Shown: positions 32,901-56,046 of the stretch, one piece after another
Layout of the letters: every line of letters starts with the position of its first letter
How positions within the stretch are numbered: position 1 is the stretch's first letter
The notes under the pieces: model-generated
The model's database searches: none
What the model was told of the DNA's origin: nothing
Seen by the model: the letters and a program-made list of their open reading frames with translations, nothing else
Translations under genes and position numbers: made by a program
Assembly (NCBI GenBank): GCA_016783745.1
Contig: JADHVZ010000006.1
Location: 3,397-67,396, forward strand
DNA: 64,000 nucleotides
Direction: 5' to 3'
From: Candidatus Omnitrophota bacterium
GTDB taxonomy: Bacteria; Omnitrophota; Gorgyraeia; JAHIPI01

Positions 32901-33693
32901 TATGTACAGCTTTTGCTATGCTTGAAGTAAATTTTCCGACTGCCTTATTAAGCGTACTCTTCCCCTCGTTCTCTCCTATCACTCTTATGAGCGCGCTGCC
33001 TATTATCACTCCATCGGCCACTCTTGAAATATCCCGCGCCTGCTTCTCATTGGAGACGCCAAAACCTACGCACACAGGCTTGTCTGTAAGGCGCTTGATC
33101 CTCTTAATATTCTTTGAGATATGCGATGGGAGCGCTGCCCTGGCGCCGGTAACGCCCGTAAGTGAGACATAGTATATGAAGCCTTTTGAATGCCTCGCTA
33201 TGATCTTCAGGCGGTCGTTCGTGCTTGTGGGTGAGGCAAGAAATATCAAATAAAGATCTTGGGCCCTGGCTGCCCCTTCAAGCTCGGCTGCCTCCTCAGC
33301 GGGAAGATCCGGGAAGATAGCGCCGTCAACGCCGCATTTCACCGCGTCACGGACAAATTTCTCAACGCCATAATGATAGACAGGGTTCAGATAACTCATA
33401 AGAATGATAGGGATCTGACTCTTTCCCCTGATCTTCTTGACACTCTTTAATATTTTATGCAATGTAGTTCCTGATTTAAGTGACCTTTCGGATGATCTCT
33501 GGATGGTAAGCCCGTCAGCCATCGGGTCGGAAAACGGTACTCCCAGCTCGACTATGTCCACTCCGGATCTTTCAAGCTCTAAAACTATTTTTTCGGTCGC
33601 GGCCATGGACGGATATCCCGCGGTTATATAGACGATGAATGCCTTGCGCTTATCCTTGCTCAGCTTATTGAATGTTTTTTTTATTCTATTCAT
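32893..33693 (-). CDS. trpA: Tryptophan synthase alpha chain
   Basis: 266 aa; TIM barrel with YITAGYP and GFGV motifs. Confidence 0.9.
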   Translation of the reverse strand: MNRIKKTFNKLSKDKRKAFIVYITAGYPSMAATEKIVLELERSGVDIVELGVPFSDPMADGLTIQRSSERSLKSGTTLHKILKSVKKIRGKSQIPIILMSYLNPVYHYGVEKFVRDAVKCGVDGAIFPDLPAEEAAELEGAARAQDLYLIFLASPTSTNDRLKIIARHSKGFIYYVSLTGVTGARAALPSHISKNIKRIKRLTDKPVCVGFGVSNEKQARDISRVADGVIIGSALIRVIGENEGKSTLNKAVGKFTSSIAKAVHNE

Positions 33694-33785
33694 TGGTTAC
33701 GGTTCTCGGTTTTCGGTTTTCGGTTCTCGGTTCTCGGTTGCAGGATTCTTCCCCCTACCCCCTACTACCTACCCCCTACTACCTA
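33694..33785. repeat. Composite tandem array filling the whole trpB-trpA spacer: (ggtt[c/t]tc)x5-6 followed by (taccccctactacc)x2
   Basis: Seen directly; the ggttttc/ggttctc heptamer is shared with elements at 53052-53125 and 56047-56124. Confidence 0.85.
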
Positions 33786-34958
33786 TTATAAGTACTCTTT
33801 AACTATATCTATATCCTTATCGCCGCGTCCTGAAAGACAGACGATTATGATATTCTTTTTACTCAGTTTGGGCGCAAGCTTTGAGGCCTGATATATCGCG
33901 TGCGCCGGTTCAAGGGCGGGGATGATACCTTCTATCTCAGAAAGCATCTTAAAACCTGCGAGCGCCTCCTTATCGTTGACCGCCACATACGAGGCTCGGC
34001 CGGATTTTTTATAAAAAGAGTGTTCGGGCCCTACTCCGGGATAATCCAATCCAGCGCTTATCGAATGAGTGAAGTTTATCTGGCCGTCACTATCCTGAAG
34101 AACATAACTTTTGCTGCCGTGAAGTATGCCTATACCCCCCTTGATCAGAGTCGCGGCGTGTTTTGACGATGAGATCCCGGCTCCTCCGGCTTCAACGCCG
34201 ACAAATCTGACCTTGTCCTTAAAGAACGGGTAAAACAGGCCCATGGAATTACTGCCTCCGCCCACGCAGGCGAGGAGATAATCCGGTAACCTTCCTTCCT
34301 CCTTAAGTATCTGCGCGCGCGCCTCTTTACCTATTACGGACTGAAAGTCCCTTACCATCTTGGGATACGGGTGCGGCCCTACCACCGATCCAAGAACATA
34401 GTGAGTTGTCCTTATATTAGTGACCCAGTCACGCAGGGTCTCGTTAATGGCGTCTTTTAAAGTCTTTGAACCGCTTGTCACGGGGATGACCTCCGTGCCC
34501 ATAAGGGCCATCCTGAAGACATTAAGCGCCTGCCGCTTCATATCCTCCTGGCCCATATAAACGTGGCATTCGCATCCGAATAGCGCGGCGGCTGTCGCAG
34601 TGGCCACTCCATGTTGGCCCGCTCCGGTCTCCGCGATAATTCGGTTCTTTTTCATGCGCTTAGCCAGAAGCAACTGGCCTATGGTATTGTTTATCTTATG
34701 CGCTCCTGTATGCAGCAAGTCTTCGCGCTTCAGATATATCCTGGCGCCCTTAAATTTTTTTGTCAGGTTGCGCGCAAAATATAAAGGTGTAGGCCTTCCC
34801 GCGTACTTTTTAAGATAGAAATCAAATTCTTTTTTAAATCCGGGGTTTTTCTTCGCCTTAAGATACTCACGCTCAAGTTCATCCAGAGCGGACATGAGAG
34901 TCTCAGGGACATATTTTCCGCCGAATCTTCCGAAGTATCCTCTTTTACCGGGTAACAT
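33786..34958 (-). CDS. trpB: Tryptophan synthase beta chain
   Basis: 390 aa; PLP site HTGAHKINN. Confidence 0.95.
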
Positions 34959-34988
34959 TGTATTTTTCCTTGTTAGACAGCATCATTA

Positions 34989-35055
34989 GGCCGTAGGTTT
35001 ATAGGTTATATAGAAACTCACTTAACCGTACACCGTAAACCGAAAACCGTACACC
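34989..35055. repeat. Low-complexity element of the 'ccgtaaacc/ccgtacacc' family (aaccgtacaccgtaaaccgaaaaccgtacacc), preceded by taggtttataggttata
   Basis: Same words, in inverted-repeat form, at 56047-56124. Confidence 0.7.
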
Positions 35056-37442
35056 TAAATAATGACCAGGCTCTGCTTCTTCCCTGTTAATGGGAAAGAC
35101 AGCTTCAGTATACCGTCTTTGTGCTTAAAATTTATCTCGCTTCCGTCAAGTGAGACACTGTACGGCTTTCGTATTTCTATCAGTATCTCGCAATGACCGC
35201 CCGCGCTTCCGTGCAGGGCAAGCCTCAATTCTCTGTCCGTGCATGAAGCCTTAAGTATCTCAGCCGTGGAATACCTGATCTTCGCCCGCCTGGAAACAGG
35301 CACATTGAGCGGAAGAACATAAGAGCTCCTGTTGGGCATAAGAAGTTTATTTTCCTGCGGTATCGTGGCGGACTTATTTAGACCCGGGATCCGGAAGTTC
35401 AAAGTCACTTCATGCGGTTCGTCGTTGAAATTCGACACAAACAGGAATCCGTATTTTTTATTAGACCTCATCACAGCATGAACATCATTCACTGATGTCT
35501 TTATGCAACGCGGCAGATTAAGGATCTGCATAAAATGGTCTATCAATCCTATTTGATAATCGAGAGTATGCTTCACTGCGAACCCGAGCAAAAGCAATTT
35601 GCCTTTCTTTATCTTCTTAAGGATACCGCACGGTTTTCTGTCTCTGGTCCGCGCTACTACCCGTCTCTTTTTAGACTCAAATACCTTGATATCACCTTCT
35701 ATCAAATAATCTTTTCCGGTGACAAATACCAGATTATCATTTACCGTCTCGCCTATACTGACATCAAATTCTTTTAACAAAGACTCTTCTCTTAAGAGCC
35801 CCATATTTTTATTAGGCGCTGTGGGATTCATGATAAGCGTTCCGCCTCTTTTGACGTACTCGGCTAATTTGAGTTGTGTCGCCTGATCCATATAGTCCAT
35901 TGAAAAGACCCACATGGCGGGAATTTCCTGCAGATCCCTTATCTTCGCTCTTTCAATATCCACCAGATTATAATTATAACCATTGATCATCAGCAGCCTT
36001 GCTATTCCGTCAAAGAAGAAATTATCTCTCGCAAGAGCCATCTGGTCTATGACTGAACCTTTGAGATAACCGGTCTCATAATAAGGCGCATAGAGGCCCA
36101 TTGCAAAATCATAATTTTTCTTTGTATCCGCTATCTGACTTCCGAAGGTCTTCACGAGATCACCGACATCCTCCATAGGCTTGATCTTGGAGTTCTTTTT
36201 TCCCTTACTGTCTATGGGAGCCTGCCATTCATGGTAGGTTCCTCTAAAACCCAATCCCGGCGGATTCAGCCCCCCGCAGAACATATACGCGTTAAGGCCG
36301 TTCAGGCCGTGCCCGATTGAGTATCTCATAAGTAAATTGATATCATTAGGATATATTCTGGGCCGGTCATTCATGCCTCCTACCTGGGCCTCCAAACAGA
36401 CCCTGGGTGCGGTTTTATCGCCTATCATATTCAATCCCTCGGTCATGAGGATAGCGTCATGAAAATTTTCAAAGTTGAGATTTCTCATCTGATACGCGCC
36501 GCCAAAAATAATATGCGGCGTATATTTTATAAAATCCCTGTATTGAAGAACGGTCATCAGCCCCTGATTACCTCTGGCGCATATGTTATAGTCCCAGAAC
36601 ATCGGGATATTGGCTACGAAAGGAAGGTCGATTTTCGCGCCCTTCGCGCGCTTGGATAAAGAATTGTAGTAGCGGGCGTAAAAATCTCTATAGAAATGTA
36701 CCCAGTCCCAGCATCTTCTTACGCCTTCTTCATCCACGTCACCTTTCGGCTGCGGGATCTCCTTAAAGCTCGTATGATTCGTGTAATACCTGTCGTTAAG
36801 GGCGGATAGCTCACCGCCATAAAGCGCCTTCAGGTATTCTCCGTACATCTCGGTCGTAGCCTTATTATAATCCGCGTCACCCATGACCCAATTCATCATG
36901 CCGATCTCGTTATCCAGCTGCACCATTATCACCGGCCCGCCTTTTGTAAAAGAGTTCTTATGGATTATCGGCAGGATCTTCGAATACCACCCGGATACGC
37001 GCTCCTGAAAAACAGGATGCATATAAGAGACCATGGCCTCGTGCGGAACATTCGATCCTTTTCTGTTTTTCGCGCGCGCTTCCTGGTAATTTTCCAGAAA
37101 CCAGGGCGGGGTGCCTTCACCCTTTATCTCCGCGTTAGAAGTAGGGCCTATCCTGGCTATAAGATTAAAGCCGGCGTTTTTGACAAGCTTGATAAAATAT
37201 ATAAGATCCTTTTGAGGAGAAGTCTTACCGGTGAAATCAAACTGGCCTTCTTCATGCTCGTGCCAGGCCCACGGTATGTAAGTGCTTATAGTATTTAATC
37301 CCGTTTCCCTGGCCTTCCTCAGCCTATCCACCCATTTATCCTTCGGTATCCTGAAATAATGGATCTCGCCCGAATAGAGGAAAAAAGGCTCATTATTCAA
37401 CAGGATCTTACCGTCTTTCAATTCGATCTTATTCCTGCCCAT
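35055..37442 (-). CDS. Glycoside hydrolase family 35-like beta-galactosidase
   Basis: 795 aa; N-terminal GEIHYFRIP...GLNTISTYIPWAWHE...FDF...GP...AE...PPWFL and acid/base VQLDNEIG match the GH35 catalytic TIM barrel. Confidence 0.75.
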   Translation of the reverse strand: MGRNKIELKDGKILLNNEPFFLYSGEIHYFRIPKDKWVDRLRKARETGLNTISTYIPWAWHEHEEGQFDFTGKTSPQKDLIYFIKLVKNAGFNLIARIGPTSNAEIKGEGTPPWFLENYQEARAKNRKGSNVPHEAMVSYMHPVFQERVSGWYSKILPIIHKNSFTKGGPVIMVQLDNEIGMMNWVMGDADYNKATTEMYGEYLKALYGGELSALNDRYYTNHTSFKEIPQPKGDVDEEGVRRCWDWVHFYRDFYARYYNSLSKRAKGAKIDLPFVANIPMFWDYNICARGNQGLMTVLQYRDFIKYTPHIIFGGAYQMRNLNFENFHDAILMTEGLNMIGDKTAPRVCLEAQVGGMNDRPRIYPNDINLLMRYSIGHGLNGLNAYMFCGGLNPPGLGFRGTYHEWQAPIDSKGKKNSKIKPMEDVGDLVKTFGSQIADTKKNYDFAMGLYAPYYETGYLKGSVIDQMALARDNFFFDGIARLLMINGYNYNLVDIERAKIRDLQEIPAMWVFSMDYMDQATQLKLAEYVKRGGTLIMNPTAPNKNMGLLREESLLKEFDVSIGETVNDNLVFVTGKDYLIEGDIKVFESKKRRVVARTRDRKPCGILKKIKKGKLLLLGFAVKHTLDYQIGLIDHFMQILNLPRCIKTSVNDVHAVMRSNKKYGFLFVSNFNDEPHEVTLNFRIPGLNKSATIPQENKLLMPNRSSYVLPLNVPVSRRAKIRYSTAEILKASCTDRELRLALHGSAGGHCEILIEIRKPYSVSLDGSEINFKHKDGILKLSFPLTGKKQSLVII

Positions 37443-37457
37443 CGACTTCTCCTATAT

Positions 37458-39248
37458 TTATTTACTTCTTACGAGTTCTATTCTGTCCACATAGATCTTT
37501 GATCTCTCTACCGGATATTTCGCGCGTATATCCAATGAGATCTCAATAACGCGGGAGAGCCCGAATATATTGTCTCCGTAAGTCACGCCGTCATACGGAT
37601 CCCTTTTGAAGTCTTTCCATAGATCAAAGGAATATTTGTTCCATCCGCTCTTATTAAGGAAGATAGGGGGTGAATTATAAATTTCCCCTTCCCTGTCTTT
37701 TATATTTAGATGCGCAACATTGCTCGCGTGGCCGCTGGATCCGTTTGAATATACCCATAGGTTAACGGCATCGTAAGTGCTCCAATCCTGAGGATACAAA
37801 AAAGGCCGCCTTATTGTGGCATTGGCTCTTTTTGCTTTTTCGTTCGGTGTAAACTCGATTCGCATAGAATGTGTACCGTCGACCGCCAGTTCATCCGTCC
37901 AGCCCAATGCTACCTCCGCCTTACTTAAATGCATGAGATCCTCCGGATATGCGGTTTTAAATTTTATATCCGTATATTCAAAGTCATCCACTACCGGCAC
38001 AAATTGGTAATCAGGATCATACTCCAGACTTTCGATCATCCTATTGGATTCATCCAGGTCTTTGAACGCCGAAAAAGGATTAAAGCTGCTCTTGGCGAAA
38101 AGATACCACGAAGTGCTGGAGATGCACAAGGGTTTATCCTGCATAAGCCAGCTGTCATATACAGGCGTCCCCTCATTGCTCGCATAAGGTAAACCTTTTG
38201 TGTGAGGAAAAGCCGGACTATCCGTAAGGCACCTGTCCAGTTCGTTTAAAAAATAGAGCCTTTCCTCTTCCCTGCCGGCCACTTCATATGCCAATACCAT
38301 GTGCGCCGTACCCTCAAACCAGACAGCGTCTTTGTCGGGAAAAGGCGAATTCTTATAGGAAGATCCGAAGTCGAATCCTTCAACCTTTACGTCTTTGACT
38401 TTATAGAGCTGTGAGTTAAGCCCCTTATCAATGGCAAAATCCAGACTAACAGCGTAATCCTTTCCCAGGCTTAATACCGCCCATGAGGACAAATCCGTGG
38501 CAAAATTAGGATTGCGCCTGCCAAGGAAAAATCTTTTCGCTTTATCATCCCAGGCATCATCATCCAGCCATTTCTTTACTTCTTTCGCGGCTCTTAAATA
38601 TTTTTCATCGCTTGTCAGGATGCCCAGATCTCTTAAGCCGGCATAACAGTCAAAATTATGCTCCGAAGATATCCAGACCATGGGATTACCGTTGCCGTAA
38701 TAACCTCCTATTATTCCTCCCTCTATAGACTGCAGGGAAATAAGCCAGTCCGCTATATCTTTCGCGAGCGGAAGGAATTCATCATCACCGGTTTCATGAT
38801 AATAATAGTTCGCCGCCATAAGAACCCAGGCACCCGGTCCGGCGGCCCGGGTCTCCGTCTCTTCTCCGTCTCGTTTATATACATCCGTAAAACCCCATAT
38901 ATCACCTTTTTCCTCAATGTGGGCCTTCCTTACATCATCAAAAAACTTGAGCAATAACCTGGCCCTGTCATAATCCCCTCTAAGCGTAAAAGCCATTGCT
39001 GCCAATGCCTCGTCATAAACAAAACAATCTTCTCCCTTTTCCATACTGGGCAGTAATCCGGTGCGGAAGAGGAGCCATTGCCTGTTAGTCCGCTGATTAG
39101 AAACCAGCCATTGATAAGCCTTATCCGCGTCTGACCACTCCTTATGGCCTCTTACAGCCAGGATATCCTGGATAGCGGGGGTCAAGGCTAAAGACCCGGC
39201 AAGGACGCAAATAATAATTAAGGAAATAATTAATATTTTTTTCATCAT
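37458..39248 (-). CDS. Secreted hypothetical protein, probable alpha/alpha-toroid glycosidase-like domain with C-terminal beta-sandwich (CBM-like) domain
   Basis: 596 aa with signal peptide; no confident family match; C-terminal ~150 aa resembles the CBM-like paralogs 41545-43154 in composition. Confidence 0.45.
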   Translation of the reverse strand: MMKKILIISLIIICVLAGSLALTPAIQDILAVRGHKEWSDADKAYQWLVSNQRTNRQWLLFRTGLLPSMEKGEDCFVYDEALAAMAFTLRGDYDRARLLLKFFDDVRKAHIEEKGDIWGFTDVYKRDGEETETRAAGPGAWVLMAANYYYHETGDDEFLPLAKDIADWLISLQSIEGGIIGGYYGNGNPMVWISSEHNFDCYAGLRDLGILTSDEKYLRAAKEVKKWLDDDAWDDKAKRFFLGRRNPNFATDLSSWAVLSLGKDYAVSLDFAIDKGLNSQLYKVKDVKVEGFDFGSSYKNSPFPDKDAVWFEGTAHMVLAYEVAGREEERLYFLNELDRCLTDSPAFPHTKGLPYASNEGTPVYDSWLMQDKPLCISSTSWYLFAKSSFNPFSAFKDLDESNRMIESLEYDPDYQFVPVVDDFEYTDIKFKTAYPEDLMHLSKAEVALGWTDELAVDGTHSMRIEFTPNEKAKRANATIRRPFLYPQDWSTYDAVNLWVYSNGSSGHASNVAHLNIKDREGEIYNSPPIFLNKSGWNKYSFDLWKDFKRDPYDGVTYGDNIFGLSRVIEISLDIRAKYPVERSKIYVDRIELVRSK

Positions 39249-41536
39249 CTCAACAACTCTATGCTTGTCCTTGAATATTTTGCATAATCGGAATCCGGAT
39301 GATTGTCGATTATATGCTGGTACTCTCTTATGGCCTCTTCTTTTGCCCCAACAGAAGCCAGGGATGACGCAAGTTCAAAACGCGCCATAATTGAAAAATC
39401 GCTATCAGGATAAAGGGCGATCATTTCTTTTAAGAAAGAAATTGTCTTCTGAGCCCTTGCGCCCTGGCTGTATACAGTAAATATACTGAGGGTCTCCTTT
39501 ATAGCGCTTTGAGCCAGATCACTTTCCGAATAATTCACTATGAAATCGCGGAAGGCCTGAATGGCTTTGCTGTATGAACGCTTTTCTTTCAGCGCTACCC
39601 CTATCGCATATGCGGCATCATCCGCTAACTCACTATTAGGGAATTCGGCGATCAATCTTTGATACACATTGACAGCTTCATCATACACCTCATTCCTCTT
39701 ATAGGAACTGGCAAGTTCCATTATCGCAAATGACGCCTCTTCCTGAGAAAGATTCTGTATCACATTATTCATATAAATGTTATATAATATCTTTGCGCGC
39801 TCAACATCGCCGTTGCTAAGCGCCAGCTCCGCTTTTTCCGTAAGCAGCGCCTTTACCTTCCCGGCATCGGTGATCTGCCCTATATTAGCGGCATATTCGC
39901 GTAAAAGGCGCCTGGAAAGCCTGACCTCTCCCTCCTCCTGCAATAATTCCGAATAGGTAAGCAGCGGCATAGCATTGCCTGTCGATTTAGCGTGCGCCAT
40001 TATCTCTTTTTCAAGCCGCTCAAGAGCAACCGTCTCCTGCCCTACAAGAAGATCATTATATATCAACCATTCAAGATACAAGACCTTTAAATAATACTCC
40101 GCGCCTTCCGTTTTTTTCCGGGCGGTTTTCATATGACCCACCACTTTACTGAGGTGCCTCATCTTCTCCGCGTAATAAGTCTCCCACGATCCGATATGCG
40201 CCAGATGCTCTAATTTGCACCATCCCGCCAGCGCGGCGTAATAATGCAAGAGTCCGGAAAATTCTGAATCGGGATAAGAAGACATGTACTCCTCAAGATA
40301 AGAGGAAAGTTGATCGAATCCCCGCTTCTCCAGTAATCTACCGGCCAGATCTTCAAGCATATCCGGAACAGCGGGACTTGACGGAGTCAGATTTAACTGA
40401 TTCTCAAGCTTTTCGATATCACTGTCTACTATAATATCTTCCTTCCAGACTTTTCTCAATGCGCTTCTTTTAACCGCGTTATAGGTACCCCGGCAATATT
40501 CTGATATCGCGAGCAGAAAATTCCTGAATATAGTGTTTCTGAACATCTGCTTGGCCGCGTAATATCCGCCTTTCGGCTTCCTGTCCCCCTTTACCAAGCC
40601 CCAATGCTCTTCCACGTTATCATCCTGGTTGTTTATATCACCGGCTTTGGACCAGTCATCCGCCCACTGGAATAATATGGCGCCTAATATGTGCCTATTG
40701 ACCTTGGCTATCTGGTCGGATATCACATCTTCCTGCAATTTGGCGGTCCAGTAAGTGCTGTAACCCATTTCGGTTATAATGATGGGCTTTTTATACTTAC
40801 GCGAGATCTCTACAAGCTCATCCACTGTCTTCTTCGCCAGGTCAGGATCATACATACCGCTACGCCAGTCAGATACACCCAGGTAAACGTTGTACCCTAG
40901 AATATCCAGGAAATCCGCACCCAGTGTCTTTGCCTCTTCATCAACTATCAGGGTGGCTGCGGTGACAGGCCTTAGCGGATCCTGCTTCTTTACGGTCTCG
41001 TACAGTTCTTTAAGGAAACTATTTACAACATCCTTACCGTAGGCCTTGATGACATCCCCTTTTCCGGTACCGTATGTCCACGGCGCGTCATTCCATATGC
41101 TCCACGCATAAATGCACTCCCTGTTCTTATCCCTTCTTATGTTCCTTACAGCTTCTCTCTTCAGCGCCTGAAGCTGGTAAGGTGAAGTGAAGTCCGTCCA
41201 GTCTCCGGGAAATACTATTGTTTCAATGACCTTTATGCCATACTTATCGGCCAGGTCAAGGATGAATTCAGGGGGCATGCCGTACAGTCTTATCGTATTT
41301 ATTCCCGCCTCTTTGATGCGTTTAAAATCCTCTTCAAAGACCTCGCGCGGTATTTGAGAATAGTGCCGCACTTTCGGATACTGGGTGTCATATGTCACGC
41401 CTTTTATAGCATCAGGTTTTTTCGGCAGCAACACAAGAAAGATGAGTATCGCAAAAAAGAGCGCCAACAATCCCAGAACTAATCGCCTGGCAATCCGTAA
41501 CCGGCCGCCTTCTATCTTGTTTTTACTTTTTAACAT
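39245..41536 (-). CDS. Membrane-anchored clan GH-A-like TIM-barrel (glycosidase-like) domain fused to C-terminal TPR repeats
   Basis: 763 aa; N-terminal TM helix; residues ~40-330 paralogous to ORF 43177-44250 (AGINTIRLYG...LDLADKYGIKVIE...WSIWNDAPW...IITEMGYSTY); C-terminal ~330 aa with repeated A/Y/L-rich TPR-like units. Confidence 0.55.
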   Translation of the reverse strand: MLKSKNKIEGGRLRIARRLVLGLLALFFAILIFLVLLPKKPDAIKGVTYDTQYPKVRHYSQIPREVFEEDFKRIKEAGINTIRLYGMPPEFILDLADKYGIKVIETIVFPGDWTDFTSPYQLQALKREAVRNIRRDKNRECIYAWSIWNDAPWTYGTGKGDVIKAYGKDVVNSFLKELYETVKKQDPLRPVTAATLIVDEEAKTLGADFLDILGYNVYLGVSDWRSGMYDPDLAKKTVDELVEISRKYKKPIIITEMGYSTYWTAKLQEDVISDQIAKVNRHILGAILFQWADDWSKAGDINNQDDNVEEHWGLVKGDRKPKGGYYAAKQMFRNTIFRNFLLAISEYCRGTYNAVKRSALRKVWKEDIIVDSDIEKLENQLNLTPSSPAVPDMLEDLAGRLLEKRGFDQLSSYLEEYMSSYPDSEFSGLLHYYAALAGWCKLEHLAHIGSWETYYAEKMRHLSKVVGHMKTARKKTEGAEYYLKVLYLEWLIYNDLLVGQETVALERLEKEIMAHAKSTGNAMPLLTYSELLQEEGEVRLSRRLLREYAANIGQITDAGKVKALLTEKAELALSNGDVERAKILYNIYMNNVIQNLSQEEASFAIMELASSYKRNEVYDEAVNVYQRLIAEFPNSELADDAAYAIGVALKEKRSYSKAIQAFRDFIVNYSESDLAQSAIKETLSIFTVYSQGARAQKTISFLKEMIALYPDSDFSIMARFELASSLASVGAKEEAIREYQHIIDNHPDSDYAKYSRTSIELLR

Positions 41537-41544
41537 TATATTTT

Positions 41545-42327
41545 CTACTCCGCGTTATTTGTGAAAATGAAATCATCGATGTAGGCGATGTCGCCCTGCA
41601 TATTACCGACATCCTTTCCAAACGCTATGCCTAAATTATCAAGTTGAGACAGATCCACTTTACCGCTGATCTGAGCAAGCGGTATCATTATCCTCTGCCA
41701 CTGGGCAGTCAGGTCAGGGAGCCTATATCTGATCTGAGGGTCATAATCCAAGGCGTGGCCATCCCTGACCAAAAGCTCCATTTTCTCGCCGCCACTTTCG
41801 CCTTTTGCCCAAAATACAATAAATTTATATCCGGAGGCATCCAGCGACTCTACTTTTTTTGGAGTTGTCGTTATATCTATCGTAGAACCCAGATCCATCG
41901 CAAAACTGCCCCAGGCAAGCTCCGGTTTAACGCCAAGTCCGTTTACAAGCCTGAAGGAATTATTGCCGGAACGGACATTCGCCGTATTGTAGCCGAGTGA
42001 AACAGGATCATAGACCCAGGAAACAGGAAACTCGTTTACATTTTCCCAATCAGGTTCCAACGCCCCGTATACACCTATTTCGCCGCCTAGATTATTCGGC
42101 CACCCTTCAAAATCAGCGACGATCAAGGCATCATCCGACACCGCCGCCTTCTCCGATTCCACCATAGGCTTTGAGGGTATTGCGGGCGGGGCTTTCGGTG
42201 TTTCTACTTGACTACTTTGCGCGGTTTCCGGCTCTGAGATAGGCTGTTCCACCTCAGCCTTTTTCCCGCATCCTGAAACCGCGAATAACAGCACAAAAAG
42301 GAGAACACAAAATCTATTCATTATCAT
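41545..42327 (-). CDS. Secreted lipoprotein, CBM-like beta-sandwich domain (paralog of 42435-43154)
   Basis: 260 aa; lipobox AVSGC; shares ADFEGWPNNLGGE(I/V)GVYG...SFRLVNGLG...WGSFAMDLG...F(I/L)VFW with the downstream paralog. Confidence 0.5.
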   Translation of the reverse strand: MIMNRFCVLLFVLLFAVSGCGKKAEVEQPISEPETAQSSQVETPKAPPAIPSKPMVESEKAAVSDDALIVADFEGWPNNLGGEIGVYGALEPDWENVNEFPVSWVYDPVSLGYNTANVRSGNNSFRLVNGLGVKPELAWGSFAMDLGSTIDITTTPKKVESLDASGYKFIVFWAKGESGGEKMELLVRDGHALDYDPQIRYRLPDLTAQWQRIMIPLAQISGKVDLSQLDNLGIAFGKDVGNMQGDIAYIDDFIFTNNAE

Positions 42328-42376
42328 AATTACCTCCTATTGATAATGCACGTATATTATACATAAATCAATGACA

Positions 42377-42408
42377 AAAGCAATACCGAATTAACGGTAT
42401 TGCTTTTG
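42377..42408 (-). terminator. Probable intrinsic terminator (13-bp perfect stem aaaagcaataccg / cggtattgctttt, loop aattaa) downstream of ORF 42435-43154
   Basis: On the minus strand the hairpin is followed by UUUUGUCAUUGAUUU. Confidence 0.45.
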
Positions 42409-42434
42409 CAGAAACAGGATGTATTTTGCGGCGA

Positions 42435-43154
42435 TTATTCGCCGTTGTTAAACATGAAATCGTCTAAATAAACGATCTCGCCTTTCAGGTTGCCGACATC
42501 CCTTCCGAAAGCTATGCCAATATTGTCAAGCGCTGCCAGATCAAGCTTGCCGCTGAACTGCTGCAAAGGAATAACAACCTTCTGCCATTCAGTAGTGGCA
42601 TCCGAAAGCTTATGCTTGACCTGCGGCATATAGTTAAGCGCATGCGCATCTCTCATAAGAAACTGCAACCGCTCTCCGCCTTTTTCGCCCCGTAACCAGA
42701 AAACCAGATATTTAAATCCTGAACAGTCAAAAGATTCCACTCTTTTAGGGATAACTGTTAGATCCGTTGTCGGACCAAGATCCATAGCAAAACTTCCCCA
42801 TGTCTCTTCGGGCTTAAGCCCCAGGCCGTTTACCAGTCTGAATGATTGTCTTCCTCCGTGGACATTCTTGATATCATAAGTCGGCGTTATGGTCTCATAG
42901 ACCCATGAATATGGTACACTCGCTATATCATCCCAATTCGGCTCGAGCGATCCGTAAACACCTACTTCACCGCCCAAATTATTAGGCCAGCCCTCGAAAT
43001 CCGCTATCAAGACAACGCCGGCCTCGGCCTCAGTCACCACGACCTCTTCCATTTCCGTCAGCTCGCTTATCAGATCATCCTGTCCTATAGCAGTATTTAC
43101 AAACAGGAAAGTCGCGACTGCCAGAAATAACGCAAAAAATGTTCTTCTTACCAT
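42435..43154 (-). CDS. Secreted CBM-like beta-sandwich protein (paralog of 41545-42327)
   Basis: 239 aa with signal peptide; ~55% identical to the upstream paralog over the C-terminal 200 aa. Confidence 0.5.
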   Translation of the reverse strand: MVRRTFFALFLAVATFLFVNTAIGQDDLISELTEMEEVVVTEAEAGVVLIADFEGWPNNLGGEVGVYGSLEPNWDDIASVPYSWVYETITPTYDIKNVHGGRQSFRLVNGLGLKPEETWGSFAMDLGPTTDLTVIPKRVESFDCSGFKYLVFWLRGEKGGERLQFLMRDAHALNYMPQVKHKLSDATTEWQKVVIPLQQFSGKLDLAALDNIGIAFGRDVGNLKGEIVYLDDFMFNNGE

Positions 43155-43176
43155 GTCCTACCTCCTTTGTTATTTT

Positions 43177-44250
43177 TTAAAATTTTACTACTCCTCTATA
43201 GCCCCTTGATTTTGTCTGTATCATACCAAAAGCCTGAGACACCGCTTTGTAGCCGCTCTTTTGATCCCTGAAAGCGTCCACTATTCCCCAGTGCTCTTCT
43301 ATATGATTATCCTGGGTCAGGGGATTTCCCGCTTTATGCCATCCATCGGACCATTGGAACACTACGACCCCGGCTACCTTTGTACCCGCAGCCTTTATTT
43401 GCGCTTCCACTACTTTACCCTGACTGTACTTTTTACAATAAGTGCTGTACCCTGTTTCCAGGATCAATCCCGGCTTCTTTTGCTGTATACTGCATATACG
43501 TTCTATTTTGCTGACCTGCTTCTTAGCCTCTCTCAGGCTAAATCCCCCATTGAACCAGTCTGTGATCCCTACAAAAGCATTAAAACCCAAAACATCCAGA
43601 AAACCAAAGCCTATGTCCTCGCCCTCTTCTCCCAGTATATTAGAACCTGTCACCGGGTGATCAGGGTCACTTTCTTTGATGGCATCATATATTTCCTTCA
43701 AAAAAGCGTTTACTGTCCTCTTGTCATACTTTTTAAGTATGGATCCTTCTTTGCTCCACCTGAAAGGCATATCGTTCCATATGGACCACATTAGTATAGC
43801 CGGGTGGTCTTTATCTCTTTCGACATAGGCCAGAGCTGTTCGCTTCAGTCCCTCAAGGTCAGACTTGGAGTTGAATTTCGTGCCTCCGCCCGGATAACAT
43901 ATATTTTCGATGACTTTCAGTCCGTACTTATCCGCCAGGTCTAATACACTTGTAGGGAGCGGCGCGTATGTACGTATGGTATTGATGCCGGCCTGCCTCA
44001 TCATCTCGAAATCCTTTTCCCATACGCTGAAAGGTACGCTCTTAAAATCCTGCTTTGGGCCGTAGTCTAAAGAGTAGCTCACGCCTTTCACATAGAAAAG
44101 CTGGCCGTTTACATATATATTTCTTTCATCCCAGGTTATCTTAGCGGGTTTCTTGACTTTATCCTGGCAATCCGCGACATCTACCCCGGATGACAGGAGG
44201 AACGCGAGACACAAAAAACCGCTTAATATATTTCTGATCAGCCTAACCAT
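43177..44250 (-). CDS. Secreted clan GH-A-like TIM-barrel glycosidase-like protein (paralog of N-domain of 39245-41536)
   Basis: 357 aa with signal peptide; QAGINTIRTYAPLPTSVLDLADKYGLKVIE, WSIWNDMPF, ILETGYSTY. Confidence 0.55.
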   Translation of the reverse strand: MVRLIRNILSGFLCLAFLLSSGVDVADCQDKVKKPAKITWDERNIYVNGQLFYVKGVSYSLDYGPKQDFKSVPFSVWEKDFEMMRQAGINTIRTYAPLPTSVLDLADKYGLKVIENICYPGGGTKFNSKSDLEGLKRTALAYVERDKDHPAILMWSIWNDMPFRWSKEGSILKKYDKRTVNAFLKEIYDAIKESDPDHPVTGSNILGEEGEDIGFGFLDVLGFNAFVGITDWFNGGFSLREAKKQVSKIERICSIQQKKPGLILETGYSTYCKKYSQGKVVEAQIKAAGTKVAGVVVFQWSDGWHKAGNPLTQDNHIEEHWGIVDAFRDQKSGYKAVSQAFGMIQTKSRGYRGVVKF

Positions 44251-46664
44251 ACGTCCACTATATGTGTTTTGTTATCGTTTCTTGCTCTTACAATTTTATG
44301 TTTCTGCTCAATACCGTCGACTATTATACGCTTTACGCCGCTTTGGACTCCCATGGGGTTTTTAATAGTGATCTTGTACTTATCCCCCCTGAAAAGTCTT
44401 GTTATGGAACATTTTTTCCAGTGCGAAGGTATAGAAGGGTCTATCCGCAGTCCATTAAACTCTCTGTGTACACCTAAAAGATATTCTGTAGCGGCCAGGT
44501 ATGTCCACGCCGCGGTGCCGGTTATCCAGCTAAAAGCTCCCTCACCATATCTGTAAGGATGTTCCGGGCCTATTAGATATTCCGCATATACGTAAGGCTC
44601 TGTCTTGTAAAGATTCATGTCCTTCTGGCTGCTCGGCATGATCTTCCTCATGCTCTCATACGCCTTGTTCCCGCGTCCTGCCATGCAGTCAGCGACTATC
44701 TTGAACGTCGCGGCATGGCAAAATACGGCGGCGTTCTCCTTGGTACCTTCGGAAAACATGGTTATCCGGCCAAGCTTGGGATTGTAATTAGAGTAAGCCG
44801 GAAAAAAAAGAGCTATGCCGTGTTTTCCGTCCAGGTACTTATCGACTGCCTTAAATAATTTTTTCCTCCGTCCGGCAGTCGCGACACCACTTAAGACCGC
44901 CCAACTCTGGGTGTTTACGAATATCTTACCCTCACTATTTTTAGCTGAACCGTATATGGTATCGCAGTCCGTAAATCCGCGCAAATACCAGCTTCCGTCC
45001 CAGCAGTGCTTATTTATACGTTCGGTCATGATTTTAGCGCGGTTTCTGAATTGTTTGGCCTTATTTCCGTAGCCTATGATGTCCGCCAGCTCCAATAAAA
45101 TACTGTATGAGCGCACAAGCGCCATTGCCAGCCAGACACTTTCACCTTTTAAGTGCTTTCCTGCCGCATCTATGCCGTCGTTCCAGTCCGCGTGGCCGAT
45201 CAGCGGTAAGCCGCGTTTTCCGGTATCCGTAAATGTAAAATTGAGATTCTTCTCAAGATGCTCGAACAAAGTCCCCTCGCCGTCCCTAACGGCGCCACCC
45301 TTCCAATGTACATCCTTCCTGGTAGCCTTTTCTCTCCAGGCGTCTTTCATATAGGGGAATCTCTCAAGAAGGATCTTCTTATCGCCTGTTTCTTTCACAT
45401 AAGCCGAAACTGTCGAAGTCAACCAGACGGGGTGATCCTTATTTGGCGCGAAAGCGGCCGGACCCCTGGTAGATGACCAGCCCGGAGCGCTTGAACCATC
45501 CCTTCTTATAAGGGTCGCCAAGGTGGCTATTTTACCATACGCGTGCTTCGGATTTATCGACATAATGCCTTCGGCATCCTGGCACGAATCCCTATAGCCC
45601 CTTCCGCCGGAACCTTCATGGTAGTAAGACGGAGACCTGGACCACAGATTACAGATATACATCTGGTACTTTACCCAGATATTTATCATAGTATTAAAAT
45701 TTTTGTCCGGAGTCTCTACGGTAACATTATCAAGGATCCTATTTTGCCACAGTTTTTTGGTCTTTTCGAATTCAGACTGAGCGGTTTTGACATTTCTGTA
45801 TTTTGAGACTATCGCTTTTGCTTTATTTTTATTGTCTGTCTGACCCAATATAACCGCGAAAACTTTTTCCTCTTTCGGGCCAAGCCCGGCCTTAAGGCAA
45901 AAAGAGCCTATCCCGTCCTCCCCCGAACAGATCTCTGAAGATATATACCTGTCGGACGACACGGATTCCGGACAGGACTCATTGTTATATCTTCCCAAAA
46001 ATCTGTCTTTCCTCGTCGCGTAACCACTGGCCGGCAGGCTTGAAGCCAAGAAAGCTACAGAGTGAAACGGCTGTATATTATTCGCCTCCCACATAGCGGT
46101 CTTTCTCGCGAATATTATCTCATCTTTTTTGTCGTACCATACCCTGTTATAAAGGTTCATAATATTTCTATAGCGAAGCTCCATATGGTAATCGCCCATA
46201 AGCCACTCGACATAAGGGGCAATAGTAAGGCTTCTCTTCCTGGATGTAGTGTTTTTAAGCCTGACAAGCCAGATCTCACAACTGTCTTCAGGAGGCACAA
46301 AGTATGTGACTTCAGATTCTATTCCGTGATTTCTTGTCTTTATCGCTGTATATCCCAGGCCATGCCTGGCTTCAAAAAAATCGAATTTAGCTCTTACCGG
46401 CTGGTATGTAGCGCCCCAGTATTTTTTTGTTTTATTATCCCTTAAATATATATATTTACCGGGCCTATCCTTATGATAATTTTGCGGAGCCCAGCGCGTT
46501 GTCCTGTCAGTCCGGCAGTCTTTATAAAAACTATAACCTCCGGCACACTGCGAAATAACGCAGCAATAATCATTATTAGTCAGATAATTTATCCAGGGCC
46601 GTGGCGTCTGGGGTGTTTTAATTATATATTCCATGCCGTCTTTTGAAAAATTTCCGTATTTCAT
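44238..46664 (-). CDS. GH94 glycoside phosphorylase (cellobiose/chitobiose/cellodextrin phosphorylase-like)
   Basis: 808 aa; N-terminus MKYGNFSKDGMEYIIKTPQTPRPWINYLTN matches the characteristic cellobiose-phosphorylase N-terminus; GHADWNDG motif; length typical of GH94. Confidence 0.8.
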   Translation of the reverse strand: MKYGNFSKDGMEYIIKTPQTPRPWINYLTNNDYCCVISQCAGGYSFYKDCRTDRTTRWAPQNYHKDRPGKYIYLRDNKTKKYWGATYQPVRAKFDFFEARHGLGYTAIKTRNHGIESEVTYFVPPEDSCEIWLVRLKNTTSRKRSLTIAPYVEWLMGDYHMELRYRNIMNLYNRVWYDKKDEIIFARKTAMWEANNIQPFHSVAFLASSLPASGYATRKDRFLGRYNNESCPESVSSDRYISSEICSGEDGIGSFCLKAGLGPKEEKVFAVILGQTDNKNKAKAIVSKYRNVKTAQSEFEKTKKLWQNRILDNVTVETPDKNFNTMINIWVKYQMYICNLWSRSPSYYHEGSGGRGYRDSCQDAEGIMSINPKHAYGKIATLATLIRRDGSSAPGWSSTRGPAAFAPNKDHPVWLTSTVSAYVKETGDKKILLERFPYMKDAWREKATRKDVHWKGGAVRDGEGTLFEHLEKNLNFTFTDTGKRGLPLIGHADWNDGIDAAGKHLKGESVWLAMALVRSYSILLELADIIGYGNKAKQFRNRAKIMTERINKHCWDGSWYLRGFTDCDTIYGSAKNSEGKIFVNTQSWAVLSGVATAGRRKKLFKAVDKYLDGKHGIALFFPAYSNYNPKLGRITMFSEGTKENAAVFCHAATFKIVADCMAGRGNKAYESMRKIMPSSQKDMNLYKTEPYVYAEYLIGPEHPYRYGEGAFSWITGTAAWTYLAATEYLLGVHREFNGLRIDPSIPSHWKKCSITRLFRGDKYKITIKNPMGVQSGVKRIIVDGIEQKHKIVRARNDNKTHIVDVWLG

Positions 46665-46671
46665 TCAGCTT

Positions 46672-47979
46672 CTATCTTTCCCTCTCCTTCAGTAATTTGT
46701 TTGCCTTAGGAGTAGCTTCTCTTATCACTTCCTCAACATCAGCTGTCCCGTTAAAGACCAGATCCAGCTTAGGCGATAGATATAATTCGTTTACTTCACG
46801 CCATTTAATGTGAAAAGGTTCGAATACGACATGTCCTACGGCTTCATTAAGCATACCTTTATTTTTTGGCGGACTATCGCTGCCCGCAAAGTACGGGCCT
46901 AAGGCTATTGGCTTAAGGGCCGGCTGCGCCAGTCCCATTTCAGACAAAAATATTTGAGCTTTATCACTCGTCAGGGCTTTTACGATGCTCCACGCAAGTT
47001 CCGGATATTTAGTGGATTTGAGCACGCAGTAACCCGATCCGCCGGTCCCGAATTTCCTTATACCGGAAGGGCCTTTGGGAAACATGGCCACATCCCAATC
47101 AAAATCCTTTATGTTGCCAAACATAACGCTTTCCCAGAAGCCGGACTGATACATGGCAAGCTTCTGTGACATAAATAACTGCTGTGCGCCCATGCCAAGG
47201 TTACCGAATTCAACCGGGCTGGGAGAGACCTTATGTTTATTGATAAGGTCCGAGTAAAACTGTAATCCCTCTATACTTTCCGGCCTGCCCAGAGTGAATT
47301 CCCTGGGGTCTCCCACGTTATCTACTATGCTGCCGCCGTTTGAATAAACAAAATTTTGCCAGGTCCAACCGTAAAAACCGTACTGCGCCACCCTTCCGTT
47401 TTCATCCAGCTTAGTAAGCGCCTTTGCCTTGGAAAGCATATCATCCCAGGTCCAATCATCAGCAGGATACGGTATGCCGGCTTTGTCAAACAAGCGCTTG
47501 TTATAAAATACACAGGCAAATGGCGCCGTGTCTCTGGGTATGCAGTAAGTCTTACCGTCCTTAGTAAATCTCTCGATCATCTCCGGGAAAAAATCGTCCA
47601 CATTAAATTCTGTATCACTCTCTATGTAAGGCTTAAGATCCAGAAAAGCATCCATAGCCCAGAAATTCACAAATATATTTGATTCCACAAACATGACGTC
47701 CGGAGCCGTGCCGCCCGCTATTCTTATGAGCAGCTTGTTTGTGTAAGACCCGGCCGGTGTGTGCTCAATTTTAGCGACTGCTTCCGGATGGCCTTTTTGC
47801 CATTCATCGATTATCTTGTTGATTATCTCTATCTCATCCGGCCCGCCCCATATAGCGACTTTGATCACAGGCTGTTTGGAAGAAGTGCCGCATCCGGCCA
47901 TATTGAGTAATGAAAAGACTGTAATAAGGGTAAGTATAAAAAAAACAACTGGCTTTTTATTGATGCTAAATCTGCTCAT
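46672..47979 (-). CDS. Carbohydrate ABC transporter substrate-binding lipoprotein (family 1 extracellular solute-binding protein)
   Basis: 435 aa; lipobox MAGCG; sugar-SBP fold composition; no permease/ATPase genes adjacent. Confidence 0.8.
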   Translation of the reverse strand: MSRFSINKKPVVFFILTLITVFSLLNMAGCGTSSKQPVIKVAIWGGPDEIEIINKIIDEWQKGHPEAVAKIEHTPAGSYTNKLLIRIAGGTAPDVMFVESNIFVNFWAMDAFLDLKPYIESDTEFNVDDFFPEMIERFTKDGKTYCIPRDTAPFACVFYNKRLFDKAGIPYPADDWTWDDMLSKAKALTKLDENGRVAQYGFYGWTWQNFVYSNGGSIVDNVGDPREFTLGRPESIEGLQFYSDLINKHKVSPSPVEFGNLGMGAQQLFMSQKLAMYQSGFWESVMFGNIKDFDWDVAMFPKGPSGIRKFGTGGSGYCVLKSTKYPELAWSIVKALTSDKAQIFLSEMGLAQPALKPIALGPYFAGSDSPPKNKGMLNEAVGHVVFEPFHIKWREVNELYLSPKLDLVFNGTADVEEVIREATPKANKLLKERER

Positions 47980-48055
47980 TTTTTACCTCACATTTATTTC
48001 TATGTGAATTTTCGATATAAGCAAAGAGGTAAGTATTATAACATAATCATTGAAA

Positions 48056-48676
48056 TTAGTCAAGAGCCTTAATAATGCTTATTATCCGCTCCATAAGCTT
48101 TTTATCCTTTTTACCCGGGATTAGCTCTATGGAGCTGGATATGTCTACTCCATAAGGCCTTACAGCTTTTATAGCTTCCTCTATATTATATAGAGAGAGG
48201 CCCCCTGAAAGTATCATGGGTATGCCCAGGCTCCTGGCTTTAAGCGCAAGGCCCCAGTCAAAAGTCTTTCCTGTGCCGCCGTAAGCCTCTTTAGAGTAAG
48301 TATCCAAAAGGCAGGCGAAAATATCCTTATAATCAGTTATGGGCTTGAGGCTTTTTTCGTCTTTGATCCTGAACGCCTTTATCACCTTCCACCGCAACAG
48401 CTTAGAACAAAAAAGCGGGTTTTCATCGCCGTGAAGCTGGAGGGCGTCTAAAGAACAATTTCCGGCAATTCTTTCAATATTAGACAGGTCTTCATTCACG
48501 AAAACGCCGACTTTTAGAACGCTTCCCTTGAGCCCCTTTATGATGGATCTGGCTTTTTTCGGATCCACTTTTCTGGGGCTTTCAGCGAATACAAAGCCGA
48601 TCGCGTCAGCGCCTAAGTCCACAGCGCCTTGCGCGTCTTCCTGATTGGTTATACCGCATATCTTGATCTTGGTCAT
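48056..48676 (-). CDS. trpF: N-(5'-phosphoribosyl)anthranilate isomerase
   Basis: 206 aa; MTKIKICGIT...ADAIGFVF. Confidence 0.9.
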   Translation of the reverse strand: MTKIKICGITNQEDAQGAVDLGADAIGFVFAESPRKVDPKKARSIIKGLKGSVLKVGVFVNEDLSNIERIAGNCSLDALQLHGDENPLFCSKLLRWKVIKAFRIKDEKSLKPITDYKDIFACLLDTYSKEAYGGTGKTFDWGLALKARSLGIPMILSGGLSLYNIEEAIKAVRPYGVDISSSIELIPGKKDKKLMERIISIIKALD

Positions 48677-48743: not shown

Positions 48744-49523
48744 TTACCCTATTAACTCCCTCATCTTTTCTCCTATGTCCTCGCTGCGCATCAGGGCTTC
48801 GCCTACAAGCACCGCGTTGATCCCGAAAGACCTTAAATATGAGATATTCTCCTTTGATTTTATGCCGCTTTCGGAGACTATCACCTTACCGCCCGGGATC
48901 ATCTTTAAAAGGCGGGGTGTGGTCTTTATGTCGACCTTAAAGGTATGCAGGTCTCTATTGTTTATGCCTATTATATCACACCCTGAATCCAGCGCTTTTT
49001 TGACGTCTTCTTCGCCATGCACTTCGACAAGAAAATCAATGGAATACCGGCTGCCTATTTCCAGAAATCTTTTTATTTCCTCGACCGACAGCAGGTCCGC
49101 GATCAAAAGCGCGGCGTCTGCTCCCGCTAAAACCGATTCGTATATCTGATATTCGTCTATTATAAAATCTTTTCTTAAAATAGGCAGGGATATACCCTTC
49201 CTTATTTCTTTTAAATATGACAGCTTACCCTGGAAAAATTTCTTGTCTGTAAGCACTGATATAGCCGATGCGCCATTTGCCTGGTATACAGAAGCTATCT
49301 TGACAGGATTAAAATCTTCTCTTATCACTCCGGCTGAAGGGGACGCCTTCTTCACCTCGGCTATAAGATGGATCTTGTGGGGTTTGCTTAGTGAGTTTTT
49401 AAAAAGATTCTTTGGGCGGGGCGCTATACCCTCAAGCCTCGCTATCAGATCCTCCTGAGGGGCCTTTTTCCTGGATCTTTCTACTTCCTTTCTCTTCGTT
49501 TCTATTATCTCGGTTAGGATCAT
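48744..49523 (-). CDS. trpC: Indole-3-glycerol phosphate synthase
   Basis: 259 aa; IAEVKKASPS motif. Confidence 0.9.
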   Translation of the reverse strand: MILTEIIETKRKEVERSRKKAPQEDLIARLEGIAPRPKNLFKNSLSKPHKIHLIAEVKKASPSAGVIREDFNPVKIASVYQANGASAISVLTDKKFFQGKLSYLKEIRKGISLPILRKDFIIDEYQIYESVLAGADAALLIADLLSVEEIKRFLEIGSRYSIDFLVEVHGEEDVKKALDSGCDIIGINNRDLHTFKVDIKTTPRLLKMIPGGKVIVSESGIKSKENISYLRSFGINAVLVGEALMRSEDIGEKMRELIG

Positions 49524-50542: not shown

Positions 50543-51109
50543 CTATTTGATCTGCAGAAAATTATTAAGGATCTTTTTCCCTTCGCCGGTCAATATCGAT
50601 TCAGGGTGAAACTGTACGCCGTATATATGATGGTCCTTATGCTTTAAGGCCATTATCTCTTTTTCCTTTGTCTCGGCAGTGATTAAAAAGCAATCGGGAA
50701 GGGAACTTCTTTCCGCGATAAGCGAATGATATCTTGTAGCTTCAAAAGGGTTTTTTACACCTTTAAATATATCTCTTCCGTCGTGCATAATGGCCGATGT
50801 CTTACCGTGCATCAGTTTTTCCGCCCTTACTATGACTCCGCCGAAGACCTCCGCTACCGCCTGATGGCCCAGGCACACCCCAAGGATAGGTATTTTACCC
50901 GCGAAGGCCCTGATGGCAGGCTCTGATATACCGGCATCCGAAGGATAGCCCGGCCCGGGAGATATTATTATCCGCTCCGGATCCAGTTTTTCCATATCTT
51001 TAAGATCTATCTTGTCATTACGATAGACTTCAAGTTCCGCCCCAAGCTCACCAAGGTATTGCACCAGGTTATACGTAAACGAATCATAATTATCTATTAC
51101 CAATATCAT
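50543..51109 (-). CDS. trpG: Anthranilate synthase component II (class I glutamine amidotransferase)
   Basis: 188 aa; GVCLGHQ catalytic Cys motif and HPES. Confidence 0.85.
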
Positions 51110-52954: not shown

Positions 52955-53051
52955 GTTTGCTCCTTAGGTAATGATGATATCCGCTCGGTCGCTTAACAAG
53001 GATTCCACACATGTTAAATGTGCTCTCGAATCGTTTGTTATTTCGCAGAGA

Positions 53052-53125
<74 letters not shown>

Positions 53126-53159
53126 AACATGAATTTGCCAAATAAGCTTACTGTTAGTA

Positions 53160-53287: not shown

Positions 53288-53323
53288 TATTTTATGTAAT
53301 TAACACGTATTTCACTTTTTATT

Positions 53324-56014: not shown

Positions 56015-56046
56015 GGATTGACCTTTCTTGACATATTTTTTAGGTT

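Follow-up and report, generated by a model that had tools for sequence, protein, structure and literature searches.

A carbohydrate-gene module between trpF and trpB in the his-trp array of an Omnitrophota bacterium

Gene content of the split trp locus

The subject of this analysis is a 64,000-nt stretch of Candidatus Omnitrophota DNA (contig JADHVZ010000006.1; hereafter the window), in which the tryptophan biosynthesis genes are interrupted by a block of carbohydrate genes, referred to below as the island. The map of open reading frames (ORFs) and scans with Pfam and NCBIfam show that all seven trp genes are present, co-oriented on the minus strand and in the canonical order E-G-D-C-F-B-A. 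The genes trpE (51111–52577), trpG (50543–51109), trpD (49520–50533), trpC (48744–49523) and trpF (48056–48676) make up the first part of the set (52577–48056), and trpB (33786–34958; TIGR00263, 629 bits) and trpA (32893–33693) the second (34958–32893), with 12.9 kb of carbohydrate genes between them. The coordinates and the family matches thus agree with the split that had been proposed in the original prediction, made from the sequence alone. The number of intervening genes had been given as nine; the ORF map contains eight non-trp ORFs in the trpF–trpB interval, all on the minus strand.

The island gene next to trpF (46672–47979) encodes a solute-binding lipoprotein of the carbohydrate ABC type (SBP_bac_1, E 4e-41; lipobox LLNMAGC). 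No sugar ABC permease (BPD_transp_1) was found among the other ORFs of the window, which agrees with the earlier description of the protein as an orphan. The second gene (44238–46664) encodes a cytoplasmic GH94 disaccharide phosphorylase with a catalytic domain (E 2e-108), a supersandwich domain and no signal peptide. The architecture is that of cellobiose phosphorylase, as predicted: residues 1–808 align to residues 1–811 of the C. thermocellum enzyme (PDB: 3QDE; E 2e-143), and the ADWND catalytic motif is kept. The bit scores, 482 against cellobiose phosphorylase, 411 against chitobiose phosphorylase and 370 against the GH94 domain of Cgs, are not decisive on specificity.

Four further genes encode two pairs of paralogs. 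A secreted TIM barrel of 357 residues resembling clan GH-A (TIM357; 43177–44250) matches Glyco_hydro_2_C (E 2e-15), and its PDB matches, to GH2 barrels and GH158, are weak. Its barrel is 44% identical to that of a larger protein (39245–41536) that matches the same family (E 1e-12), ends in repeats matching TPR families and is anchored by an N-terminal transmembrane segment. Both the fusion and its secreted paralog therefore correspond to what had been read from the letters. In both barrels, the ...MWSxxNE acid/base motif of GH2 is replaced by WND, with Asp in place of Glu (residues 155–160 of TIM357, HPAILMWSIWND; residues 145–150 of the TPR fusion, CIYAWSIWND), and a putative nucleophile motif is kept (ILETGYS and ITEMGYS, respectively); WND is also kept in two relatives of the locus described below (L166 and L167). 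The second pair, previously noted as CBM-like, is related to carbohydrate-binding module family CBM30. Paralog b (42435–43154) has a signal peptide and scores 27.6 bits against a cut-off of 27, and paralog a (41545–42327), a lipoprotein with the lipobox LFAVSGC, stays under the cut-off (E 1.4e-3); the two are 57% identical.

The protein encoded at 37458–39248, a secreted polypeptide of 596 residues, belongs to an uncharacterised family and had no sequence match in the curated families searched. Its structure model (pLDDT 92.8) consists of an (α/α)6 barrel, in line with the toroid originally suspected, and a C-terminal CBM11-like β-sandwich; the nearest folds are GH15-like and MmpH. Homologs were found only in metagenome-assembled genomes (MAGs) of Omnitrophota, Aureabacteria, Elusimicrobiota and the PVC group.

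The last island gene (35055–37442; protein identical to MBL7070978.1, annotated as Candidatus Omnitrophota) encodes a cytoplasmic GH35 enzyme. The family had been named correctly; the further designation as a β-galactosidase is not borne out. The best PDB match is the β-1,2-glucosyltransferase IaSGT of Ignavibacterium album (7VKW/7VKX, E 5e-111), which is far ahead of β-galactosidases and also of the exo-β-D-glucosaminidase GlmA (5GSL, E 3e-71). All seven subsite −1 and catalytic residues of IaSGT (Y52, E102, N175, E176, N275, E343 and Y378) are kept, as Y55, E105, N178, E179, N278, E351 and Y386. In IaSGT, an Asn replaces the glucosamine-recognising Asp of GlmA (PMC8861115), and the window enzyme has Asn178 at this position. 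We therefore rejected the assignment to GlmA (NF041127, 282 bits against a cut-off of 1500) and, with it, a chitosan or chitin reading of the island as GlmA plus chitobiose phosphorylase. Overall, the CAZy-type assignments made from the sequence are essentially right by Pfam and PDB matches. Six of the eight island proteins carry a signal peptide, a lipobox or a transmembrane anchor, and GH94 and GH35 carry none.

The island sits in a window that is almost entirely one co-directional housekeeping array (coaX, birA, uvrB, nadC, valS, leuA, lysC ... lepA, pgm, rpe, ruvX, manC, trp, his, alaS, recA). Around trp the gene order is alaS-hisDBHAFI-trpEGDCF...trpBA-manC-ruvX, with hisI (52574–52954, minus strand) directly preceding trpE in a his-trp supraoperon. 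Elsewhere in the window, an ABC ATPase ORF of 168 residues (22717–23280) stops right where its ABC_tran domain ends and may be truncated; a 15-nt tandem repeat (22717–22771) follows it and a Peripla_BP_2 binding-protein gene (23287–24144) precedes it.

Conservation and age of the interruption

For comparison we used 160 loci, among the matches listed in TrpF scans of GTDB species genomes and JGI metagenomes. The best listed TrpF matches were 57% and 53% identical to the query, so the scans supplied outgroups only, and close relatives were obtained through a protein search with GH35 followed by look-up of the contigs. Among the listed comparators, trpB lies at most 400 nt from trpF in 115 of 143 informative loci, and in none of the 160 does an island gene lie closer than 10 kb to trpF. 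The window's own array, hisA-hisF-hisI-trpEGDCF-trpB-(gap)-trpA-manC, recurs in about a dozen loci, most of which bear the label Omnitrophota (they include L014, L015, L017, L023, L030, L031, L036, L044, L090 and L097), and trpF abuts trpB in all of them. Because outgroups with the same array have trpF and trpB adjacent, the uninterrupted junction is best read as the ancestral state and the module as derived, and the original idea of an insertion into an ancestral trpEGDCFBA layout is upheld in this respect.

An unrelated insert of 12.9 kb is also exceptional. Among the listed comparators, the trpF–trpB gap is at least 500 nt in only 5 of 118 pairs, and the largest measures 3963 nt. This largest gap, in a Gemmatimonadota MAG (L046, 10594–14503), holds aroE, aroC, aroK-aroB and aroQ, all co-directional. 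The inserts in that aromatic supraoperon come from the same pathway as the genes around them, whereas those in the window have no known link to the synthesis of aromatic amino acids.

The GH35 search returned 24 cluster representatives with 61–100% identity. Five relatives were examined, with GH35 identities of 83% (L166), 75% (L167/L168), 69% (L169/L170), 65% (L171) and 62% (L176). As far as the contigs reach, all five have the order trpF | SBP-GH94-(TIM357)-CBM-CBM-TIM/TPR-596-GH35 | trpB-trpA-(manC)-ruvX-M16-M50-rpe-pgm-lepA, where SBP is the binding lipoprotein and 596 the protein of that length. The divergence of the island proteins falls in step with that of the flanking housekeeping proteins. 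Identities of island proteins to those of the window are 65–84% in L166, 58–78% in L167, 57–78% in L169 and 45–70% in L171; flanking proteins range from 53 to 87%, with trpB at 87/83/79/79% and trpA at 77/74/69/61% in the same four loci and pgm at 78/72/73%. TIM357 was found only in the window and L166 and is absent from L167, L169 and L171, so the content of the module appears to have changed slightly over time.

The same junctions recur in assemblies that differ in sample and pipeline: ENA ERZ24794671/676 and ERZ27252234/253, Logan ERR13325xxx, JGI 3300033153/3300041079/3300028920 and NCBI GCA_030635985.1. The window is itself a metagenomic contig, and a chimeric assembly of a glycan locus with trp genes might be suspected on that ground; given these independent assemblies, its probability is negligible.

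The wording of the original prediction implied an island that is recent and foreign, acquired in a single insertion that left a repeat at the junction as a scar. Several observations could be taken that way. Outgroup Omnitrophota have a contiguous trpF–trpB junction, and free-standing versions of the module occur in other genomes (see below). The GC content at third codon positions (GC3) is 0.50 in the island against 0.53 (p 0.007), and the tetranucleotide correlation, 0.933, is close to the minimum among other 13-kb windows (range 0.932–0.9675). That value is nevertheless within the range, and the adjacent trp genes have an equally low GC3. The GC content (0.459 against 0.466) does not differ significantly, and the correlation of island codon usage with that of the remaining window is r 0.973, within the 0.912–0.982 of eight-gene control blocks. 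The compositional deviation that might have been expected of the island thus does not exceed the controls. Signs of mobility are likewise missing: no integrase or transposase is encoded by the eight island ORFs, no flanking direct or inverted repeats, junction-spanning repeats or junctional tRNA were detected, and the only Rfam element in the window is one tRNA (18363–18441), with no match to a Trp leader or a riboswitch.

Since the island occupies the same position in five relatives, the most distant with 62% GH35 identity, its divergence tracks the flanks, its codon usage matches and no marks of mobility are seen, the arrangement is, as judged from gene order and composition, old, fixed and vertically inherited, and a recent foreign island is very improbable. 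The comparison of gene order thus cuts both ways for the original proposal: the outgroups, with trpF next to trpB, speak for an insertion, and within the clade the island genes are conserved in place, as expected of an ancient arrangement.

Transcription across the junctions and the heptamer arrays

A putative σ70-type promoter with an extended −10 element, TTGACT-17-TGTTATAAT, lies at the trpF–island junction (48035–48063, minus strand). Its −35 element overlaps the trpF stop codon, and with 11 of 12 consensus positions matched it is the best candidate in the 20 kb scanned. The same architecture (TTGACN, a spacer of 17–18 nt and TGNTANNNT) is found at the trpF–island junctions of L167, L169 and L171, where the spacers are otherwise divergent. 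On the gene strand of the window, the strong pattern has five occurrences, where shuffles of both strands predict 0.56, and four of the five are intergenic. On account of this excess and placement, the pattern likely represents a real promoter type of the organism. The four other matches (TTGACN-N14–16-TGNTANNNT, minus strand) are at 25320, 22651, 20082 and 19498; three are in gaps, and the remaining one falls in the 3′ portion of lepA, ahead of a signal peptidase gene.

No terminator-like site was found 3′ of trpF or of GH35 in the window. The 96-nt spacer between GH35 and trpB (34959–35054, minus strand) contains a heptamer array and neither a strong promoter nor a terminator. In L166 and L167, the corresponding spacers are only 13 and 21 nt long, respectively, and therefore leave no space for an intergenic trpB promoter. 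Given the lack of terminators, the tight spacing in these relatives and the lack of a strong promoter in the window spacer, trpBA are most likely co-transcribed from the module promoter, with read-through from trpEGDCF. Read-through and an internal promoter had both been considered for trpBA in the original prediction; the first is the better supported of the two. Within the island, the gap between the CBM30-like genes contains a hairpin with a perfect 14-bp stem and a 6-nt loop (42375–42408, minus strand), and the gap folds at −34.2 kcal/mol (z −5.5). No T-run follows the hairpin, so it is not a canonical terminator.

The simple-sequence element noted at the trpB-proximal junction is real: Tandem Repeats Finder reports a repeat of period 7 at 35024–35059, of the ACGGUUU type on the mRNA. 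Related heptamer arrays (AACCGNN or NNCGGTT type) occur at 33700, 53052–53284 and 56039–56124, and arrays are missing at the corresponding junctions of L166 and L167. Because the junction repeat belongs with similar arrays in other gaps of the his-trp stretch and is absent from the junction in these two relatives, it is not an insertion scar, and this part of the original proposal falls away.

The arrays have several further properties. They fill gaps of the his-trp stretch only (56015–56125, 52955–53323, 34959–35054 and 33694–33785), and the same repeat runs in frame inside trpE (51936–51968), between the N-terminal and chorismate-binding domains. Where both orientations occur together, as in the hisD/hisB and hisF/hisI gaps, strong hairpins are predicted (−40 and −99 kcal/mol; z −6.7 and −5.9). 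For the array upstream of trpB no partner lies nearby; its complement is the array that immediately follows the gene (duplex of −40.7 kcal/mol; the median for the window is −18), so that trpB is bracketed by complementary arrays. The 92-nt trpB/trpA gap (33694–33785, minus strand) combines an AACCGAG-type array with G-rich repeats, the stretch at 33751–33785 being a GGUAGUAGGGGG repeat.

Relationships to other GH35 loci and origin of the module

We compared the island with the gene cluster around IaSGT (IALB_1185) of I. album, which contains GH144 endo-β-1,2-glucanases, GH94, GH3 and a Sopn-binding protein (PMC8861115). The two have in common a cytoplasmic IaSGT-type GH35, with the same residues in subsite −1 and at the catalytic positions, as well as GH94, an ABC sugar-binding protein and one or more secreted enzymes of (α/α)6 fold. 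Unlike the I. album SGL cluster, the island has no GH144 (PF10091), GH3, TonB-dependent transporter or permeases, and its GH94 scores higher to cellobiose phosphorylase than to the Cgs/SOGP-type domain. None of the island proteins matches PF10091. We take this Pfam family to be GH144, a link for which a literature search returned nothing.

Free-standing loci in related uncultured bacteria (L172, L175 and the P0035 contig) have a GH35 of the same group (44–46% identity) next to GH94; they also encode a sugar-binding protein and secreted proteins of CBM11/CBM30-like type. L175 and the P0035 contig have the order PF10091 protein - SBP/permease fusion - permease - GH35 - GH94 - CBM11/30-like - PilZ, and L172 has GH35 - GH94 - GH9 - CBM11 proteins. 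Compared with the island, these loci possess a complete importer, an endoglucanase of known family (PF10091 or GH9) and PilZ, they are not in a trp operon, and their GH94 is only 35–36% identical to that of the window. A neighbouring gene in L172 (1–5290) encodes a product of 19,362 residues and runs past the end of the locus. Taken together, the GH94 match, the IaSGT residues of GH35, the fold of the 596-residue protein and the free-standing loci lead us to infer a role of the module in the utilisation of β-glucan or β-gluco-oligosaccharides.

A second type of arrangement was found in two Omnitrophota-type genomes of greater distance, L173 (GCA_964460615.1) and L174, where the order is alaS-hisDBHAFI-trpEGDC-[GH35]-trpBA-ruvX. 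A lone GH35 gene, 46–47% identical in product to that of the window, lies between trpC and trpB (L173 9729–12696; L174 9858–12533), and trpF is not present there. In both loci, a promoter of its own is predicted for GH35, and the leader after it contains a conserved hairpin that resembles a terminator (AACGCCTT...AAGGCGT and a T-run) and may be an attenuator; a further terminator-like hairpin lies 3′ of GH35, and trpB has its own predicted extended −10 promoter. A neighbour-joining (NJ) tree built from 56 GH35 homologs unites the GH35-only clade with the island clade (bootstrap 93) and places the free-standing homologs outside.

The position of GH35 directly upstream of trpB in two clades whose GH35 genes group together raises the question of a functional tie, in which a link of expression or activity with tryptophan synthase would hold GH35 or the module in place beside trpB, be it co-regulation with glucan availability or the handling of indole or aryl glucosides. 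The 13–21-nt GH35–trpB spacers of L166 and L167 are compatible with such a tie, and so is the acceptor preference of IaSGT for aryl and alkyl glucosides (PMC8861115). In L173 and L174, however, the separate promoters and the intervening hairpin uncouple the two genes. Moreover, we know of no pathway that joins β-glucosides to the reaction of trpBA. The same GH35 family resides in ordinary glycan loci elsewhere, and other Omnitrophota have quite different cargo in the same operon. We consider functional coupling highly unlikely.

That cargo lies between trpB and trpA in island-free Omnitrophota (L014, 11955–14087; L097, 12106–14462; L031, 12119–14169; L030, 11825–13026). DUF6941, directly upstream of trpA, is conserved, and it is accompanied by a variable set of radical SAM, Hypoth_Ymh, NYN and FkbM methyltransferase genes. 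This different cargo hints that the his-trp array of Omnitrophota tolerates insertions. All eight trpB–trpA gaps of at least 500 nt among the listed comparators fall in this group. It is conceivable that the supraoperon is a recurrent landing site, where the island and the lone GH35 arrived independently or stepwise as co-directional cargo hitch-hiking on transcription. The restriction of TIM357 to the window and L166 would agree with stepwise arrival, and the his-trp tree (below) does not pair the two GH35-bearing clades as sisters. Against this, the GH35 genes of the two clades are mutual closest relatives, which favours one origin at the site; the sample is small, only NJ trees are available, and no mechanism of insertion was identified. 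We regard repeated landing as possible, if on the unlikely side.

The explanation that we favour, with a probability of about 0.65, is that an ancestor acquired a module for β-glucan or β-gluco-oligosaccharides between trpF and trpB, and that the module has since been inherited vertically and kept under selection. It would be transcribed from its own extended −10 σ70 promoter, for which the motif and its conservation are observed and the activity is inferred, and trpBA would form the tail of the module transcript, supplemented by read-through from trpEGDCF. The secreted and anchored proteins, namely the (α/α)6 protein with its CBM11-like domain, the two GH-A barrels and the two CBM30-like proteins, would bind and cut extracellular or periplasmic β-glucan, and the lipoprotein would bind the oligosaccharides on behalf of an ABC importer whose genes lie elsewhere. 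Inside the cell, glucose-1-phosphate would be released by the cytoplasmic GH94 phosphorylase and could be passed into glycolysis by the phosphoglucomutase encoded 7 kb downstream, and the IaSGT-type GH35, likewise cytoplasmic, would process or transfer β-linked glucosyl units. The placement would reflect a co-directional insertion into a constitutively transcribed array that was tolerated and then fixed, and it requires no biochemical tie to tryptophan.

Several points weigh against this explanation. An NJ tree of nine his-trp proteins was confined to full-length taxa, since the island relatives provide trpB and trpA alone. It groups the window, the island-free Omnitrophota and the GH35-only pair as a single clade (300/300), inside which the window is placed with the island-free Omnitrophota in 73% and with the GH35-only pair in 0% of replicates, in conflict with the GH35 tree. 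Because the two trees, both simple NJ trees, disagree, the history does not appear to be clean, and loss or lateral replacement must be added to it. One history that fits is the presence of GH35 or the whole module at the site in the common ancestor, with later loss in the island-free group; another that fits is movement between lineages, for example by recombination between the conserved trp genes on either side. Consensus motifs and spacing are the basis on which a promoter, read-through and the lack of a separate trpBA promoter are proposed, and a weak promoter could be hidden in the 96-nt spacer of the window. The indications of substrate also disagree: GH94 points to cellobiose phosphorylase, GH35 to a β-1,2-specific enzyme and the CBM-like domains to binders of β-1,4 or mixed-linkage glucan. 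The Pfam scan found neither a GH144-type endo-β-1,2-glucanase nor a permease among the island proteins, and both TIM barrels, with WND instead of NE, may not be ordinary hydrolases.

Genes inserted into trp operons have been described before (Xie et al. 2003, as cited in Kagan et al. 2008, PMC2395257). In the published cases, as in the window, the canonical order and orientation are kept and unrelated genes lie between two trp genes. Those interruptions consist of single genes of unknown function, whereas the window has eight genes (12.9 kb) that form a coherent glycan module with a conserved promoter and are fixed in a clade. In literature searches on Omnitrophota with tryptophan and glycoside hydrolases and on genes inserted in trp operons, and in an Omnitrophota genome preprint, we met no account of such an arrangement. 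The locus thus represents a type of operon interruption that is already known, at an unusually large size; what is surprising is its scale and stability, not its kind.

Omnitrophota are thought to live as predators or epibionts. If the his-trp supraoperon were a landing pad for the module, the lone GH35 or DUF6941 with its variable companions, and trpBA at the same time depended on the promoter of the glucan module, the last step of tryptophan synthesis would be tied to glycan foraging; this combination seems to us rather improbable.

The locus provides a clean, datable case in which an essential biosynthetic operon took up a large unrelated module that then became fixed, and in which the insertion probably rewired the transcription of the last two genes of the operon, trpBA. 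It illustrates that an odd gene within an operon need not signal recent horizontal transfer. Of secondary value are the uncharacterised secreted families of the module: the (α/α)6 protein with its CBM11-like domain, the WND TIM barrels and the CBM30-like paralogs form a conserved set beside an IaSGT-type GH35 and GH94, in a phylum with almost no biochemistry, and are candidates for new β-glucan-active families.

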